Sequence record: DRR723986_4014
Strand: one strand, 5' to 3'
DNA: 64,000 nt
A program made the translations under genes and the position numbers. Of this stretch, positions 1 through 6,776 are shown piece by piece; within the stretch, counting starts at the first letter, position 1, and every line of letters begins with the position of its first letter. The notes beneath the pieces are model-generated. The model saw only the letters and a program-made list of their open reading frames with translations. It made no database searches and was not told where the DNA came from.

Positions 1-61
1 AACCATGCGTTGCAACGAAGTCGCCGAGCCAGTCAACTTTAAGAAACAGCCGACGTTATCT
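1..61 (+). repeat. attC-like site, cut by the window edge and apparently missing most of its right arm
   Basis: AACCATGCGTTGCAACGAAGTCGCCGAGCCAGTCAACTTT closely matches CACCCTGCGTTGCACCGGAGTCGCCGAGCTAGTCGACTTT at 2071-2110; ends in GTTATCT at 55-61. Confidence 0.6.
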
Positions 62-829
62 GGCTTCGCTTACGTGAACACGTTTACGTTTGACAATTTC
101 TACTACTTCGATTGTCAGCCCTACGACGAAAGCTGGTACGCCTACACGCATCCTCAAAAAGATCCGTTCTTGCATGGGCGCTTTTCAGTAGAGCAATGCG
201 CCTTTGTTTCACATGCCGAGAAGCTAGGTAAGTTTGACGAAACTCAGATATCTGAGATTGAACGACTTCTTGCAGTGCATCGAGACGAGATGCATCTTGA
301 GCAATTTGAGATTCACAAGAAGTGCCCGAAGCACTACCGCGAAATCTCGCCGAACTCTTACGCTTTCCGCGATTTGTTTTTGCGAATGCGTAACGGTGGT
401 AAATGGGACCCAAAATTCACCGTGGCTTGGGACAAGCTGACTGGCGGCGATCCGGCTTATCGCCTCAACCGAGAATTCGTTTGCCGTGTGACAACTCTGG
501 CATCAGACATTCCCCAGGATCAATGGATGGAAGAATTAAGCGAAAGCTGTCAGGACACGTGGACATACGACATTGCGCCATATCGCGAAGATGCTGAAAC
601 GTTTGAATCATACTTATCCGAAACTGTAGACACGATCTATTCGCCAACAGAGCCAAAAGAACATCTATACAAAGTTGAACGGATATTCTCGATAAACTCC
701 CTTTCAAATCTATATTTGATTCGTCATTCACGTGACACATACTTTTACTACAATGACCTTGGTGATGTTGTGGTTCCGGTGTTTCTGCCTCCGCAAAGCT
801 CTTCGTGGATGCCCAACTACATACTGTGA
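5..829 (+). CDS. Hypothetical protein (cassette ORF); true start uncertain because the ATG lies inside the attC-like repeat (GTG at 74 is an alternative)
   Basis: 274-aa ORF flanked by attC-like repeats; no family recognised. Confidence 0.6.
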   Translation: MRCNEVAEPVNFKKQPTLSGFAYVNTFTFDNFYYFDCQPYDESWYAYTHPQKDPFLHGRFSVEQCAFVSHAEKLGKFDETQISEIERLLAVHRDEMHLEQFEIHKKCPKHYREISPNSYAFRDLFLRMRNGGKWDPKFTVAWDKLTGGDPAYRLNREFVCRVTTLASDIPQDQWMEELSESCQDTWTYDIAPYREDAETFESYLSETVDTIYSPTEPKEHLYKVERIFSINSLSNLYLIRHSRDTYFYYNDLGDVVVPVFLPPQSSSWMPNYIL

Positions 830-834
830 TCGCC

Positions 835-924
835 AGGCAATTACATTGTGCACCGAAGTCGCGTCGGTTCCCGCAATTTGAAGTATTGCTCACTCGCGCA
901 ACTGGGTGGACATTGTCGTTATCC
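835..924 (+). repeat. attC-like site (degenerate left core AGGCAAT, right core GTTATCC)
   Basis: Left arm AATTACATTGTGCACCGAAGTCGCG aligns with the reverse complement of the right arm, AACGACAATGTCCACCCAGTTGCGCG; 90 bp. Confidence 0.7.
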
Positions 925-942
925 GACTGAAGCCAGCGGGAT

Positions 943-1443
943 TTGATGATCGACGAGTTGCTACTGTTAACTGTGTTTCCGCTGCTGTTTGCTGCGTTAC
1001 CCATTGTTGAATTGAAGTGCTTGTTTCGCGAAACTGAATCCGGTCGCATTCCATGGAATCGGCCCAAAAGCTCACCTAGACCTGCTATCCAACTTGCGAG
1101 CGGACTGCAGGCAACATGCGCGCTGTCACTGTTCGCGTTGATCTGGCTGTTGATTTTTGCCGGTTGCTGCCTCGCGGATCCTGCAGGACGGTCGCTCTTT
1201 GATCCAATGGGGCTGGGAGCACTTTCGCGGCGCAACCCTGATTCTGTCGCTACCGTATGGGCGGCGCTATCGAGCACCGCTCTAGTTCTCCATCTGCTCT
1301 TCGCTCCTGCTCTTGCGTTGACCGCAAACCTCCGACTTCCGAATCTGCTTGCAGTTCCCGCGTCCGTGCCATTGTTTACCGTCTCATGCTACACTGCATG
1401 GGCCGTGTTCCACCCGCTGTTCGCTCTCGAGAATGGCGGATAA
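943..1443 (+). CDS. Hypothetical membrane protein (cassette ORF)
   Basis: 166 aa with several hydrophobic segments; TAA stop overlaps the GGATAAC core of the next attC-like site. Confidence 0.7.
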   Translation: MMIDELLLLTVFPLLFAALPIVELKCLFRETESGRIPWNRPKSSPRPAIQLASGLQATCALSLFALIWLLIFAGCCLADPAGRSLFDPMGLGALSRRNPDSVATVWAALSSTALVLHLLFAPALALTANLRLPNLLAVPASVPLFTVSCYTAWAVFHPLFALENGG

Positions 1444-1528
1444 CCATCGCATTCACTCGGAGCCGAGTTTTCGAGCTTTTTCAAATAGAAACCCAACTCT
1501 CCCGGCCCGGTGATGCGGGTCGTTCGCC
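1438..1528 (+). repeat. attC-like site (GGATAAC ... GTTCGCC), the best preserved
   Basis: AACCATCGCATTCACTCGGAGCCG ... CGGCCCGGTGATGCGGGTCGTT forms an imperfect hairpin with unpaired extra bases; 91 bp. Confidence 0.85.
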
Positions 1529-1550
1529 TTCTTTGAGACGCAGCAGATCT

Positions 1551-2102
1551 TTGACAAACCCCTATACGCCCACGCGTGGTATTCGCGAGAGACTGGCAGA
1601 TGAAGCTGGAGCCCGGCAGTCATCGGCTTACGTCGGCAAAGCGACGCTGATCGTTGCTGGTCTGTGTCTGTACGCTTCAACGCCGTGGCGTGATGCGATG
1701 CTGTATTCGAGTATTCAGCAGCATGGCGGCTTTCCGCCAGCCGCTGACTCTATTGCCATAGGAATCGCCGCATCTTTCGTATCAATGATCGTCTTCTCTC
1801 CGATCGCGATGTTTCTCATTGGTTACGGGATAGGTCTCGCCAATGGATTGTATTTACTGCCATCGGTCCAAAGGTCTACTATTGTGTGGGGCGTCTGCGC
1901 GTCAATCGTCGTTGCAGTAATATTATGGATCGAAATTGAGACCCTCGTAATTGCCGCTAATTACGGTCCTGACTGGGGCTCGATTGCGTTAACATTCATC
2001 TATTTGGTCTATGCCTACATATGGTGGTGTTGCTCAATTTCCCACAAACGAATAGACAAGGAGACTGGCGCACCCTGCGTTGCACCGGAGTCGCCGAGCT
2101 AG
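1551..2102 (+). CDS. Hypothetical membrane protein (cassette ORF); probable TTG start at 1551 rather than 1257
   Basis: The longer ORF call runs through the upstream gene and attC; TTG at 1551 gives MTNPYTPT followed by about four TM-like segments; the stop lies inside the next attC. Confidence 0.65.
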   Translation: MTNPYTPTRGIRERLADEAGARQSSAYVGKATLIVAGLCLYASTPWRDAMLYSSIQQHGGFPPAADSIAIGIAASFVSMIVFSPIAMFLIGYGIGLANGLYLLPSVQRSTIVWGVCASIVVAVILWIEIETLVIAANYGPDWGSIALTFIYLVYAYIWWCCSISHKRIDKETGAPCVAPESPS

Positions 2103-2155
2103 TCGACTTTGCTAGACAATCCAACACTGTGATTCGTTGAACGCAGTCTTTCGTC
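2067..2155 (+). repeat. attC-like site (GGCGCAC ... TTTCGTC; both cores carry a point change)
   Basis: CTGCGTTGCACCGGAGTCGC ... GTGATTCGTTGAACGCAG hairpin; 89 bp. Confidence 0.75.
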
Positions 2156-2167
2156 GGTGAATCAGCC

Positions 2168-2980
2168 ATGAGATCTTATATTGCATTCGCGGTCGTTTTC
2201 CACGCGGTGGCCTTGCAGGCGTTCGCAGGTAATGACCGTGCTACGGATATGCGACGGACCATTGAATCCATACGCTCCGAGATTCAAAACAGTCCAGCTC
2301 ATGCCTGGGCTGGAGAATACCGCGGACATGAAGGGATCGACACCTTTACAACGCTGTATGTCGCTCCGAAGGCGGGAATTGCTTACGAGATGCACGGAAA
2401 TAGCGGCGTTTACGAGAGCAACTGCGGTTCAATTGAGATAGACGGGGACAAGATCTCAATTTCTTGGCGTCATCCCGAGGAACACGCTCATGTGCCTACA
2501 ATTGAACGTGAGCTACTCGTTGTGCTGTGGGATGATCTCGTCTTTCTTGTTCCTCGATGCGCGATTCACCGCTTTTGTCTAGATGCCAAACAGCATCGCT
2601 ATCGGTTATTGTCGAGTGAACTCACCCGAAATAGCGGAGCACAAAAGCAATTAGCCGGCAAACCTACGCTACCCAATGAATTCCAGATCTTCTGGGATCT
2701 TCCGCAGATGGAAGCTAGCAACGTATCAATCGCCAAGCCGCAATTCAAAAAAATTGACGCTGAGACTACACGGGCTACTCAGACGGTTACTTTGGATAAG
2801 GGTTCAGCACAGCATATTTACGTTGGAATGAGTTTAGAATGTCCACGTATCGCTCGTCGCTTCACCGTGACTGCAACAGACCAAGACTCCTGTACCGCAG
2901 AATCGATCGTTGTCGTGAAAAGCGGATCACCGCTGCGTCCAGCCCGACGTCGTTGGAGGTTAACGACATCCACGCGGTAG
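2168..2980 (+). CDS. Hypothetical secreted protein (cassette ORF)
   Basis: 270 aa; N-terminal signal-peptide-like MRSYIAFAVVFHAVALQAFA. Confidence 0.75.
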   Translation: MRSYIAFAVVFHAVALQAFAGNDRATDMRRTIESIRSEIQNSPAHAWAGEYRGHEGIDTFTTLYVAPKAGIAYEMHGNSGVYESNCGSIEIDGDKISISWRHPEEHAHVPTIERELLVVLWDDLVFLVPRCAIHRFCLDAKQHRYRLLSSELTRNSGAQKQLAGKPTLPNEFQIFWDLPQMEASNVSIAKPQFKKIDAETTRATQTVTLDKGSAQHIYVGMSLECPRIARRFTVTATDQDSCTAESIVVVKSGSPLRPARRRWRLTTSTR

Positions 2981-2989
2981 CGAAGAACC

Positions 2990-3080
2990 GACGAACTATG
3001 TGTTGCACGGTAGTTCCGGTGCCCGTTCGACTCTGCACAACCATTAGCCTACCGGAACACCGCGAGCAGATCCGTTTCCA
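2990..3080 (+). repeat. attC-like site (GACGAAC ... GTTTCCA)
   Basis: TGTTGCACGGTAGTTCCGGT ... ACCGGAACACCGCGAGCA hairpin with extra-helical bases; 91 bp. Confidence 0.75.
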
Positions 3081-3429
3081 CGCTAAGCAATGGACGGGCC
3101 GGAACCGGAATGTCGACCAGAACGGACCAGATACGGCCGGGGTGGTGGACTGCTGACTAGGGTGAAACTATTTGTTTCTGGCATGGACGAAGCTGCCGAT
3201 GTTTTGTTCCACCGGGCTCTACCAGTGATGGCAGACCAGCTCGGCAAATAGTTGGGCTGTCGAGCAAAACGCAGAGGCGCGGTGTCGCGGAGAACTGGCG
3301 GACAGGAATCCTCCGCGTGCTTTGGGGCGTCAGGCTTCGCGAGACGCCACTGAGTCGCAGGGTTGTGTTCGCTACATTGATTGATCGCTCGTCGTCGGCC
3401 GCGTGCCCCGTACCTTACTGCGTCTATTT

Positions 3430-3912
3430 ATGATTACTATTGACCTTGAACAATTCGTCGTGTCGGGCAGTATTCCCAAAATCGATCACCAAACTACGCG
3501 CGCTGATCTACTGGAACTGCTTGGACCCAATGAGCCAGGTTATCCTGACGTCATGAGCTACGGACACGTCGGGTTTGACTTTCCAGGCGGCTCAAAGTTT
3601 CTACGTGGGGTCTTAATATCTTTTCCACGGTTCTTCACGGGTAACGAGCGGCAGCGGCAAATCGATTCTTGGCCCGAAAAGCGATTCGAGTAGAGGTTGG
3701 GCCGGCTGACGCAGCACCTGACAGTCGATGAGGCTCGAAAGATCCCCGAGCTATCCGATTGGCATTGCTATGACGATTATTGGAACTCGTCTGGAGTCGG
3801 TTGCACGATGGAATCGCCGGCGACTGGGGTTATGATACGCTTCCGGGCGGCCGCGGAATCGGAACCACGTGTAATCGAATTCATTACGGCCTACATCCGA
3901 CCTCCAAGTTGA
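3430..3912 (+). pseudogene. Cassette ORF interrupted by an in-frame TAG at 3691-3693
   Basis: ORFs 3403..3693 and 3697..3912 share a frame: ...WPEKRFE*RLGRLTQ...; TAG is one base from TGG (Trp). Confidence 0.65.
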
Positions 3913-3994
3913 GGGGCGGGGGAAGGAAGGCTGGAATTCGTTGGACGCGAGCAAGAAACGCGATACGGTTACAAAGTGGCGAAACCAAAGAGCG

Positions 3995-4070
3995 CAGAAT
4001 GCTGCACGCCGAGTCATCAAGCGACTTGTATTTTCGTGGATTATCTTGGCGACCGCATAATCTTTCATTT
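3995..4070 (+). repeat. Highly degenerate attC-like remnant (boundaries approximate)
   Basis: TGCACGCCGAGTCATCAAG ... CTTGGCGAC inner arms resemble the other repeats; outer cores not recognisable. Confidence 0.35.
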
Positions 4071-4088
4071 CCATGGACGAACTAAAAA

Positions 4089-4475
4089 ATGAACCGGATC
4101 ACCCATCGCGTATTTGGTACTTTGGAGAAGCTGTCTGAGATCCCCGACGTCAATATGCATTGGTGGAGAGGCTCGCTGATTTTTCCACCGATAGCCGCAC
4201 GCGTGGCGTTGGAACTACACGCAGTGCCGACGGGACCAAATGACATCCAAGTTTATTCGTACGAAAAACTCTTGCAGAACTATTCAATGCTGCGCGAACG
4301 CGGCACGGAGAATGGTGACGTCCCCTCAGACTCTGATGATTGTCACCTAACAAAGATTACGTTTTTCGTGAACGGACACCTCGATCTTCACTTCAATTCC
4401 GGCGGGGAAGAGTGTCTGATATACGCGGACGCCGATGCCGCGTACATGACGCCCAGCGAAGCGATGGAGTGCTGA
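4089..4475 (+). CDS. Hypothetical protein (probable cassette ORF)
   Basis: 128-aa ATG ORF between attC-like remnants. Confidence 0.55.
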   Translation: MNRITHRVFGTLEKLSEIPDVNMHWWRGSLIFPPIAARVALELHAVPTGPNDIQVYSYEKLLQNYSMLRERGTENGDVPSDSDDCHLTKITFFVNGHLDLHFNSGGEECLIYADADAAYMTPSEAMEC

Positions 4476-4518
4476 TGCGCCTCGGTGTGTATGCTTCGCT
4501 TGTTGACGCGATCAGTGC

Positions 4519-4588
4519 GACGAACGAGCGCATCCATTCAGGCCGCACAAGCGGGCCAGTGCGTCTGCTGGTGCAAGGTTCGTTAATG
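4519..4588 (+). repeat. Short attC-like hairpin (GACGAAC ... GTTCGTTAATG)
   Basis: AACGAGCGCATCCATTCAGGCCGCAC ... GTGCGTCTGCTGGTGCAAGGTTCGTT imperfect inverted repeat. Confidence 0.5.
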
Positions 4589-4664
4589 GCCGTCAAAGGC
4601 ACAATGCGAGTTTTGGTGAAAAAGCGTTGTATTGCTATTCTCTAACGTGAGGTTAACCAAACCA

Positions 4665-5084
4665 ATGGAGTGCTGGAGTGGCCAATATTCGTTTGACGCT
4701 CGCTTTGAGTCCGTTTTTCCGGGTGGCCTCAAGACGGTGGACTTTGAGTTCACTTTTCGTTTGCGGCTGTTCGGCATTTTGACCGGAGAGATTCGTGATG
4801 GTGCTGACGGAATTCCAGAACCAGCTACCGCATACGGCAGAATCGTCGCTTATAAATCGATTTGGTTCACCAAGACCTATCCACGCACTTGGGCTCCCGC
4901 CCCAGAGACCGGCGAGTTGTACGTCTTCGACAACCGCAAGCATGTTGTAAGATACAGGGGTGTCTATGATTCTCCCGAAGTTCTTCTTGGCACATGGGAG
5001 ATCCACTCGCAGCGTCGAGTAGTAAACGGCACTGAGTACGAGATCCCTCGAGTTACGGGCACATGGAACGCGCGTAAATCCTAG
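4665..5084 (+). CDS. Hypothetical beta-rich protein (probable cassette ORF)
   Basis: ATG at 4665 is in frame with ORF 4632..5084; W-x-G-x-Y start and GTW motifs; followed 5 bp later by a GGCGAAC core. Confidence 0.7.
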   Translation: MECWSGQYSFDARFESVFPGGLKTVDFEFTFRLRLFGILTGEIRDGADGIPEPATAYGRIVAYKSIWFTKTYPRTWAPAPETGELYVFDNRKHVVRYRGVYDSPEVLLGTWEIHSQRRVVNGTEYEIPRVTGTWNARKS

Positions 5085-5089
5085 AAGTG

Positions 5090-5165
5090 GGCGAACTAGG
5101 GGATGCACAACGCGACGCCCCTCCATGCTCGTTCCCTGCGTCACTGCCGGTGGATCGTGATATGA
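5090..5165 (+). repeat. Degenerate terminal attC-like site
   Basis: GGCGAACTAGGGGATGCAC...GCGACGC pairs partially with GCGTCAC...GTGGATC. Confidence 0.4.
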
Positions 5166-5436
5166 GTACCGAGCACGCGCCTTGAACAGGTGACAACCTA
5201 ACTCGCGAAGCGGCGAGAGTAGTGAAATCAGGTAATAGATCAACAGGGCGATTGAGGCGGGTTCAGTGCTGAATTTTCGTTGACATGCCAATGTCGGTTC
5301 AACGTGATCCAAAGTGGATTACGCGCATTTCACTCGCTTTGCGAGTTTAAATCAATCTCTGTTCGCAGGGTTTTCGCAGCCCAGCTATGGTACTTGGGGA
5401 GGTCCCAGATGTTCGCCGATAATCGTTCAAAGAAAA

Positions 5437-5865
5437 TCACGCTTCGATTGGTCCATCAGTCACCAGGAACCGTCTAAATCGATCACGCAGCGCAGCTTCA
5501 ATTCTTCGCGGGCGTTCCGTTTCGAAGTCGATGAAGAGTCCACGCTGTCGCCCTGTAGCAGCAACCTTGCCTGTACCGCTAACAAACTCAAAATCCATCC
5601 ATGCGGAAGCCTTCGACAACTCAGAAAGCCAGATCTTGCCGAGCACCGTGTCCCCCAAGCGTAGCGGATGTTTGTAAGACACGACCGTGTCCATGAGGAT
5701 AGGGACGAAGCCGTCCTTGCCAGTATCGGCAATGGGTAGCCCCACCGCATCGAGTAGCTTGCACCGTCCAATTTCCATCCATTTGATGTATACGATATTG
5801 CTCACATGTCGCATGTAGTCAATTTCGTATGGATAAATCTGAAGTTCGAACTCTAAGTGTTTCAT
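5437..5865 (-). CDS. Acyl-CoA thioesterase (4HBT/YbgC hot-dog fold)
   Basis: YEIDYMRHVSNIVYIKWMEIGR matches the D-x-x-x-H-V-x-N-x-x-Y motif; YKHPLRLGD. Confidence 0.9.
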   Translation of the reverse strand: MKHLEFELQIYPYEIDYMRHVSNIVYIKWMEIGRCKLLDAVGLPIADTGKDGFVPILMDTVVSYKHPLRLGDTVLGKIWLSELSKASAWMDFEFVSGTGKVAATGRQRGLFIDFETERPRRIEAALRDRFRRFLVTDGPIEA

Positions 5866-5970
5866 GACTCTTTATCGACCTAGCGCAGATGTGTGAGTAC
5901 CGCCTCCGGGAGAAGCAGCCATTCGGGCATCCAACCGGCGGAGCTGTCGACAAGCCGCATTGCCTGCTAA

Positions 5971-6038: not shown

Positions 6039-6776
6039 CTACTCGCGAAGCGAAGAGAGTAGTCGAATCAGGTAGTAGAACAACAGGGCGACTGAGGCGA
6101 ACAACGCCAAGCTGGCCGCAACGTGTTGATCAGTGTGGTAACGATGAAGAACGTTTGATGTGTCGTAAAGGATATATGCCGAAGCAAGCACGACCATCGC
6201 AACTGAGAACCAGACTCCCAGAGTGAATCCGCCGGGGAGAACCATGTTGACAACAATTAGCCCCATGGCGGCGAGGCCCGCAATCCAAAGGATCTTACCC
6301 AGCCAAGAGAAGTCAGCTTTGGTGAGAAATACCATCGCCGTCAGACCAATAAAAATGATCGACGTTAGGATTCCAGCGGTTTGAGGAATCTCCCAACTTT
6401 GTCCAGCGACGTACCAAGCGTAGGACATCATTGGGAGAAAGATCAGGGCTTGAGCGACGATATACAGCCCCAGTCCGGCGTACTGCATCGCTTTGCTCGA
6501 TCGAGGCGATTGGGCCCAGTAGTCAGCAATGTAGCTGGCGCCAACAAACAGGCCGAACACAATGATCATGCCGAACCGCCCCATGCCCATCAGAGTTTGG
6601 AGCACTGTTTCGGGTGGGAAGATGGTCAGCAAAATCGCTTCCAAAACCACGAAGGCGATCACAGCAGCGGAAAGGTGAGTGTACGTCCTTTGAATGAAGG
6701 CTGTCCGCTCGTCGAGCTGTGCATTGGCCGCAATGCGGTAATCCATCGAATTGGTCGTCTGGTCGCCAAACTGCAT
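6039..6776 (-). CDS. Bax inhibitor-1/YccA family membrane protein
   Basis: About seven TM segments; FIQRTYTHL, KADFSWLG, ILYDTSNV motifs; ATG at 6776 has an AGGAG RBS. Confidence 0.9.
   Translation of the reverse strand: MQFGDQTTNSMDYRIAANAQLDERTAFIQRTYTHLSAAVIAFVVLEAILLTIFPPETVLQTLMGMGRFGMIIVFGLFVGASYIADYWAQSPRSSKAMQYAGLGLYIVAQALIFLPMMSYAWYVAGQSWEIPQTAGILTSIIFIGLTAMVFLTKADFSWLGKILWIAGLAAMGLIVVNMVLPGGFTLGVWFSVAMVVLASAYILYDTSNVLHRYHTDQHVAASLALFASVALLFYYLIRLLSSLRE

Follow-up and report, generated by a model that had tools for sequence, protein, structure and literature searches.

The first 3,080 nucleotides of DRR723986_4014, a stretch of 64,000 nucleotides that was analysed as a whole (the window), contain short open reading frames (ORFs) separated by repeats of about 90 nt. 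This locus raises the question of whether the repeats are the attC sites of an integron and whether, as proposed in the initial annotation, the complementarity between the first bases of each unit and the core at that unit's opposite end is a footprint of past circular intermediates. The results indicated that positions 1–3080 almost certainly comprise four consecutive integron gene cassettes with attC-type sites of about 90 nt between them, and that the own-end complementarity likely arose from cutting by an integron integrase (IntI) at G/TT, where the slash marks the crossover.

IntI recombines the folded bottom strand where A meets C in the AAC triplet. A general description of attC sites is available (PMC3053210, PMC7439510) and, in the accessible text of the papers concerned, recombination is placed between the first and second core base (PMC8876359), a cassette begins at the first T of one R' and ends with the G of the following one, its own attC being the circular form (PMC2674596), integration yields chimeric attC sites (PMC4889954), no complementarity to R'' is required of the four variable R' bases in an integrated site (PMC5371416), and self-pairing reaches 9–11 nt in most cassettes (PMC2727003).

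Own ends of the window cassettes are complementary

The four core pairs listed in the initial annotation were recovered at their positions with the same scores. Positions 55–64 and 832–841 of cassette 1 paired at 7/10, 918–925 and 1437–1444 of cassette 2 at 8/8, 1522–1528 and 2067–2073 of cassette 3 at 6/7, and 2149–2158 and 2987–2996 of cassette 4 at 9/10. In a fixed comparison restricted to core positions 4–7, with the GTT triplet excluded, own-cassette pairs matched at 2, 4, 4 and 4 positions (14/16), whereas the two cores inside one integrated hairpin matched at 1, 2, 3 and 0 (6/16), so the earlier statement that the latter agree less well outside the triplet held. When the core pairings were permuted, the observed arrangement was the single best of 24, at both four and seven positions (p = 1/24 = 0.042, the lowest value reachable with four pairs). 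The first core base (G or T), as read from the sequence, is part of the upstream cassette, and the score for the circular form therefore becomes 10/10 for cassette 4 and only 5/7 for cassette 3.

Circularization of each unit in silico at G/TT, the check proposed together with the claim, lowered the folding energy at all four window sites (−16.1 to −17.8, −20.8 to −21.9, −14.0 to −17.1 and −15.7 to −23.8 kcal/mol, integrated to circular). The pairing probability of the R box improved in all four, reaching 0.47, 0.94, 0.61 and 0.99 in the circular form.

The same pattern is found in 430 cassettes of relatives

The nearest relative of the window is locus L001 of an uncultured Pirellulaceae genome (G001), and IntI above the TIGR02249 cut-off was present in 128 of the 251 genomes of its family. 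From the first 40 regions and 40 more, nhmmer gave 754 matches, 626 of which were anchored on AAC and GTT; these provided 430 distinct adjacent pairs, 200–1,600 nt apart, from 52 loci. Homologous cassettes were kept unmerged, and the 128 unanchored matches were left out, so that the set favours intact sites.

The results showed that own ends matched at frequencies of 0.95, 0.96, 0.96 and 0.96 at positions 4–7, 0.90 at position 8, 0.40 at positions 9 and 10, and 0.27 at position 11, from which the match was at background. The corresponding values for positions 4–10 were 0.55, 0.42, 0.41, 0.67, 0.45, 0.24 and 0.33 in integrated hairpins and 0.49, 0.39, 0.35, 0.58, 0.42, 0.19 and 0.33 as means of shuffled pairings. 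Shuffled pairings, on which the initial annotation had staked its reading, did not match as well as own-cassette ones: the observed values exceeded the shuffled maximum (0.43–0.62 at positions 4–7), and in a within-array shuffle of the first set (106 pairs) the observed value was 3.70 compared to a shuffled maximum of 2.79. A full match at all four positions was seen for own ends in 386 of the 430 cassettes and within integrated hairpins in 52. The circular form folded lower in 386 cases, equally in 21 and higher in 23, and the pairing probability of the R box rose from 0.39 in integrated sites to 0.94 in circles.

Forty-one control cassettes, taken from 20 regions of the phylum Verrucomicrobiota and one Gemmatirosa record and mostly from two arrays, gave 0.95–0.98 at positions 4–7 and 0.83, 0.71, 0.56 and 0.46 at positions 8–11, which shows that neither the pattern nor its extension beyond 7 bp is special to L001's family. 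A search for IntI on plasmids returned almost exclusively class 1 records, and a single record (H2) was used. The idea that a match beyond 7 bp is a new feature was rejected on the basis of these controls and of the 9–11 complementary nucleotides given in PMC2727003. From 109 pairs the match had seemed to stop abruptly at position 10, but this failed to hold in the 430 (0.40 at that position compared to a shuffled maximum of 0.39). Mismatches at position 9 occurred mainly where the 5' base is A (51/251). The motif ACTGAA, or a close variant, is common at cassette positions 9–14; it contains a TGA stop codon, is exact in 44 of the 430 cassettes, occurs in window cassette 2 (926–931) and explains most of the position-9 mismatches.

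The repeats resemble attC sites of the family

A detector based only on the triplets, the L box and the stem was used to scan 40 regions around IntI genes of L001's family. Sites of about 90 nt clustered on one side of intI, compared to a single match in 237 kb of shuffled sequence; in the window, attC4 was recovered blindly by the same detector. A covariance model (R1) was built from 76 of 177 sites beside IntI genes in relatives, with at most three per array, lengths of 89–92 nt and none from the window. On the 64-kb window, R1 gave 10 matches at E ≤ 5, and ranks 1–4 were attC2, attC4, attC3 and attC1, all on the bottom strand. This independent model supports the assignment of the repeats in 1–3080 as putative attC sites. 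The 300 best R1 matches in the family scored 53–91 bits, so only attC2 lies within the normal range.

In the R1 alignment, 18 of 19 stem pairs showed two-sided changes and 92.9% of cells were paired, figures that lean upward since the sites were selected for pairing, and in integrated sites the four outermost pairs of the R box failed in 15–39 of the 76. The family structure has spacers of 5 and 6 nt, and its bases at 16 and 23 are bulged, a 6-bp stem separating the two; the bulged T at position 23 and the G adjoining the AAC of R' are invariant (76/76 each), and the window sites align to positions 16 and 23. Lengths of attC1–4 (89–91 nt) and attC0 (65 nt) fall within 57–141 nt, the family mode being 90–91. 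The bottom strand folds lower by 1.1–3.7 kcal/mol in 4/4 window sites, and 6–7 of 9 L-box positions pair, giving an imperfect hairpin. Both triplets, AAC in R'' and GTT in R', are intact in attC2 and attC4, and the deviating triplets of attC1 and attC3 are read as decay. No Rfam match and no tRNA were found in the window, and promoter and terminator scans of it remained at chance level.

Apparent changes of neighbour at the crossover point in public-run contigs

Contigs from four public sequencing runs, which share 6–16% of the window's words, were compared with the array, and among the loose ends listed (16 of 36) three single contigs appeared to change neighbour. A contig from run X3 has 32 bases identical to 1493–1524 and other sequence straight after GTT, and a contig from run X2 departs from the window at 1525, after the GTT of attC2. 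In run X4, positions 55–102 stand behind a different, AT-rich stretch, which resembles the junctions before the first cassettes in 18 loci of relatives and is likely an attI site, judging by this resemblance.

Organization of the array and its surroundings

The features are listed in Table 1. Units 1–4 hold one ORF each, all on the top strand of attC, with complementary own ends, as in a gene cassette array. No family from Pfam, NCBIfam or PADLOC was assigned to any cassette protein.

Table 1. Coordinates of the cassettes, attC sites and adjoining ORFs in the window
Feature	Position	Strand	Length	Description
attC0	1–61	+		cut by window start, shortened; intact left arm, right arm lacking about 24 nt including L'; crossover G55/TT
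Cassette 1	56–918	+	863 nt	
Cassette 1 gene	74–829	+	251 aa	from GTG 74; function unassigned
attC1	835–924	+	90 nt	decayed, R'' AAT instead of AAC; R1 20.5 bits, E 0.004, bottom strand
Cassette 2	919–1522	+	604 nt	gene 946–1443, 165 aa, hydrophobic; stop codon within R''
attC2	1438–1528	+	91 nt	sole intact-looking site; R1 64.2 bits, E 1e-14
Cassette 3	1523–2149	+	627 nt	ORF 1551–2102, 183 aa, hydrophobic, reads through into attC3
attC3	2067–2155	+	89 nt	decayed (CAC for AAC, TTT for GTT); R1 21.9 bits, E 0.002
Cassette 4	2150–3074	+	925 nt	gene 2168–2980, 270 aa, function unassigned
attC4	2990–3080	+	91 nt	both triplets intact, L box with two mismatches; R1 34.7 bits, E 7.5e-7
Likely older cassettes with eroded sites	3075–5180	+		ORFs 3418–3693, 3697–3912, 4089–4475, 4665–5084

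The truncated attC0 gave no match with R1; its positions 1–39 were found by nhmmer (E 3e-4), its left arm is 87% identical to attC3 over 39 nt, and a global alignment with attC3 requires a single 24-nt gap. The own-end complementarity fixes the start of cassette 1 and of its gene. Full-length homologues of the cassette 1 protein start at GTG 74, that is, 3' of G55, and two of the three homologues are 250 aa long and start at the same residue. An alternative R' of attC0 near 82–88 was dropped because the homologues begin at 74 and the X4 contig breaks at 55. The Atlas gave nothing usable for this protein. The first eight bases of cassette 2 are the most frequent cassette start among the relatives (49/430). 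The cassette 3 protein has one homologue (43% identity), and the cassette 4 protein has five and matched only unnamed clusters in the Atlas (0.91). Locus L099 holds a 32% homologue of the latter (E 2e-19), flanked by two attC sites and close to an IntI gene; there (2649–4852) the attC sites face the neighbouring intI and share the strand of the gene, the usual layout being divergent.

The region 3075–5180 likely consists of older cassettes with eroded sites. No R1 match at E ≤ 1 was found in it, and weak relatives of the ORF at 3418 occur in two regions with arrays (E 3e-5 and 1e-3). A TAG stop (3691–3699) separates two in-frame ORFs, 3403–3693 and 3697–3912, which are possibly one broken cassette gene.

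Three of the five window sites are damaged and the array is decaying; attC2, and possibly attC4, would be the only sites still able to recombine. A contig of a related strain in run X1 lacks 51 nt inside attC4 (window positions 3016–3066), away from G/TT. This loss, together with the 24-nt loss in attC0, suggests internal hairpin deletion as a common way in which such sites die.

The window starts inside the array and continues downstream with genes for a thioesterase, a Bax1-type protein and housekeeping functions. The Bax1-type protein is 87% identical to the one in L001, with which the window is syntenic from 6041 onward, and the host is probably a planctomycete, most likely of the Pirellulaceae. 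The first 37 bases of the window had no exact match in metagenome contigs. A 59-nt stretch from the Bax1-type gene's 3' end recurs (88%) on the far side of the thioesterase gene (repeats 5201–5259 and 6041–6099), and a contig from run X2 joins 5180 to 5968 with nine other letters; on these two observations, the thioesterase block (5181–5967) looks inserted or lost between strains.

Several observations concern the integrons of other genomes. One genome has 149 R1 matches, most of them in a single array of about 85 kb (G025:C1:229000–314000), and another (G203:C1) has 81, spread over seven or more clusters, and one IntI match. A large number of the family's IntI matches sit in open frames of 430–650 aa, far longer than the 315-position model. 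In G002, two copies of an IntI gene (C16:923454–924385 and C21:4556–5487) are broken at an identical position, each into two frames. A Gemmatirosa megaplasmid that is unannotated in the collection carries an array of 27 or more attC-like sites next to an IntI gene (L145:16610–30267).

Mechanism and alternative explanations

An integron integrase would cut each site at G/TT and thereby put one core half at each cassette end, so that the start of a cassette complements the core at its other end. The cassettes may have been inserted via excised circular forms by a Pirellulaceae-type IntI, a tyrosine recombinase, after which the sites would have decayed toward the distal end, the window representing the ageing distal part of an array. 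The initial annotation held that crossover at G/TT leaves exactly this pattern, and the R1 assignment, the 386 versus 52 of 430 matches, the lower folding of circular forms and the contigs that switch at G/TT agree with it. Its description of a footprint of circular intermediates is supported within limits: the crossover inside the R box and the cassette as a unit are borne out, but the pattern alone does not prove a free, covalently closed circle. It gives neither dates of events nor present activity. The array is ordinary, and the pattern is a textbook one that belongs to the definition of integrated cassettes.

Several points weigh against this interpretation. The window alone gives just the p value of four pairs, the pair lengths (7 to 10) were picked in the initial annotation after the data had been seen, cassette 1 matches at only 2/4 of positions 4–7 and the site upstream of it is without L', and the true start of cassette 3 is equalled or beaten by 6 of 65 other NTT places over positions 4–10. 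The contig evidence consists of single contigs with a depth of 2–7 and 32–48 matching bases, and these may represent paralogous sites in strains related to the source. In L001, the same flanking gene stands without an adjoining array, and G001 has no IntI above the cut-off, though it has five attC matches. No integrase, attI or cassette promoter (Pc) was found in the 64-kb window (best IntI tblastn E 0.46).

If the repeats were instead repetitive extragenic palindromic (REP)-like elements or terminators between ordinary genes, the end matches would reflect chance and shared consensus. A loose consensus is indeed common to all cores, so that any two partly match (shuffled means of 0.35–0.58 per position), and one terminator-like match lies inside attC2 (1456–1475). 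However, terminator-like matches are at chance overall (7 compared to 5.9 ± 2.4), and such repeats would pair inside the hairpin, whereas the cores pair far better from one side of the gene to the other (386 compared to 52 of 430), which bears out the earlier preference for site-specific insertion. The sites also have two bulged bases (16, 23) with a 6-bp stem between them and cluster beside IntI genes. With the permutation test on 430 cassettes refuting it, this explanation has next to no chance of being correct. The chances are about even, by contrast, that the same cassettes and sites form an orphan cluster of attC sites lacking an integrase of its own (CALIN), served in trans or no longer, a possibility that concerns the context and not the footprint. 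The window has no IntI in 64 kb and four sites with none downstream for 60 kb, three of its five sites are damaged, and relatives hold many clusters far from IntI (G203 has several clusters and one IntI match). Yet the window starts inside a site, so that intI and attI could sit just upstream, and arrays of relatives extend up to 85 kb from intI (G025).

A further explanation is that the end complementarity was written by a templated step, with one end serving as the template for the other when the cassette was made, or through repair of the folded circle, and not only kept by selection; the near-perfect mirror of the five variable bases past GTT (8 bp in total, up to 10–11) would then have been templated when cassettes are made or circularized. 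The match is 93–97% even in 72 cassettes with a stop codon overlapping AAC, where R'' also codes, and the cores are varied (the top 8-mer in 49/430) yet nearly always mirrored. On the other hand, selection suffices, given the rise in R-box pairing from 0.39 to 0.94 in the circle, and R-box mismatches reduce integrase binding according to the accessible text of PMC4792948; the match also fades over positions 9–10 with no sharp end, position 9 failing mainly with a 5' A. Templating is therefore considered unlikely; it is retained because cassette genesis, according to the same text, still lacks a reliable model. If true, it would offer a sequence clue to the unsolved origin of cassettes, and the Pirellulaceae sites, pyrimidine-rich and with a C16 bulge, would form a substrate class of their own for reading this clue.

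For the preferred reading, insertion by an integrase that cuts at G/TT, the own-end match is a useful check of cassette boundaries in decayed arrays with lost triplets. The presence of IntI in roughly half of the genomes of the family, an own-end match of 8 rather than 7 bp, non-RRRY cores and the C bulge point to a large, little-studied cassette pool, and such figures could help to tune attC detection outside Proteobacteria.

Comparison with known systems

In the available text of PMC4889954, PMC2674596 and PMC5371416, IntI/attC cassettes have the features seen in the window: units that begin at the first T of one R' and close on the G of the following one, AAC and GTT triplets, variable R' bases that need not complement R'' of the integrated site, a bottom-strand hairpin with an L box, 5/6-nt spacers and bulged bases, and short, co-oriented, promoter-poor ORFs of unassigned function. 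Unlike a typical integron, the window has no visible intI, attI or Pc, and its sites are largely damaged. As far as the accessible parts of PMC2727003 and PMC5027507 go, Vibrio cholerae repeat (VCR) and class 1 attC sites share with the family the bulges at bottom-strand positions 16 and 23, the second being T, with the 6-bp stem between them, the G adjoining the AAC of R', and self-pairing that exceeds 7 nt (9–11 nt reported in PMC2727003); the spacers and bulged bases of the family structure agree with the attC description in PMC5027507.

The family departs from these sites in two respects. Its cores fit GTTRRRY, a proteobacterial tendency, in only 5 of the 430 cassettes, and C occupies its first bulged position in 286 of 319 clear cases, whereas the published text says almost exclusively G. 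Both are consensus tendencies, only the triplet being called conserved in the accessible text of the cited papers. Since C is also the first bulged base in 25/25 Gemmatirosa sites and a G16-to-C change alters recombination at most 2.7-fold (PMC2727003, in the text available), the difference is small in effect. Neither the C16 bulge nor non-RRRY cores were found in the literature on planctomycete or Pirellulaceae integrons, as covered by titles and the beginnings of abstracts with subscription papers mostly outside coverage, and the model or supplements of PMC8352920 may already hold both.

Chimeric attC cores, self-pairing of 9–11 nt and a Planctomycetes-specific attC covariance model are already in print, the last, according to the accessible text, in Ghaly et al. 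(2021; PMC8352920). With a host that is likely a member of the Pirellulaceae, the window sites would belong to this Planctomycetes class, a membership assigned here by R1 as built in this study. Taken together, the window array would work like an attC cassette array and, by the sequence tests applied here, is one.

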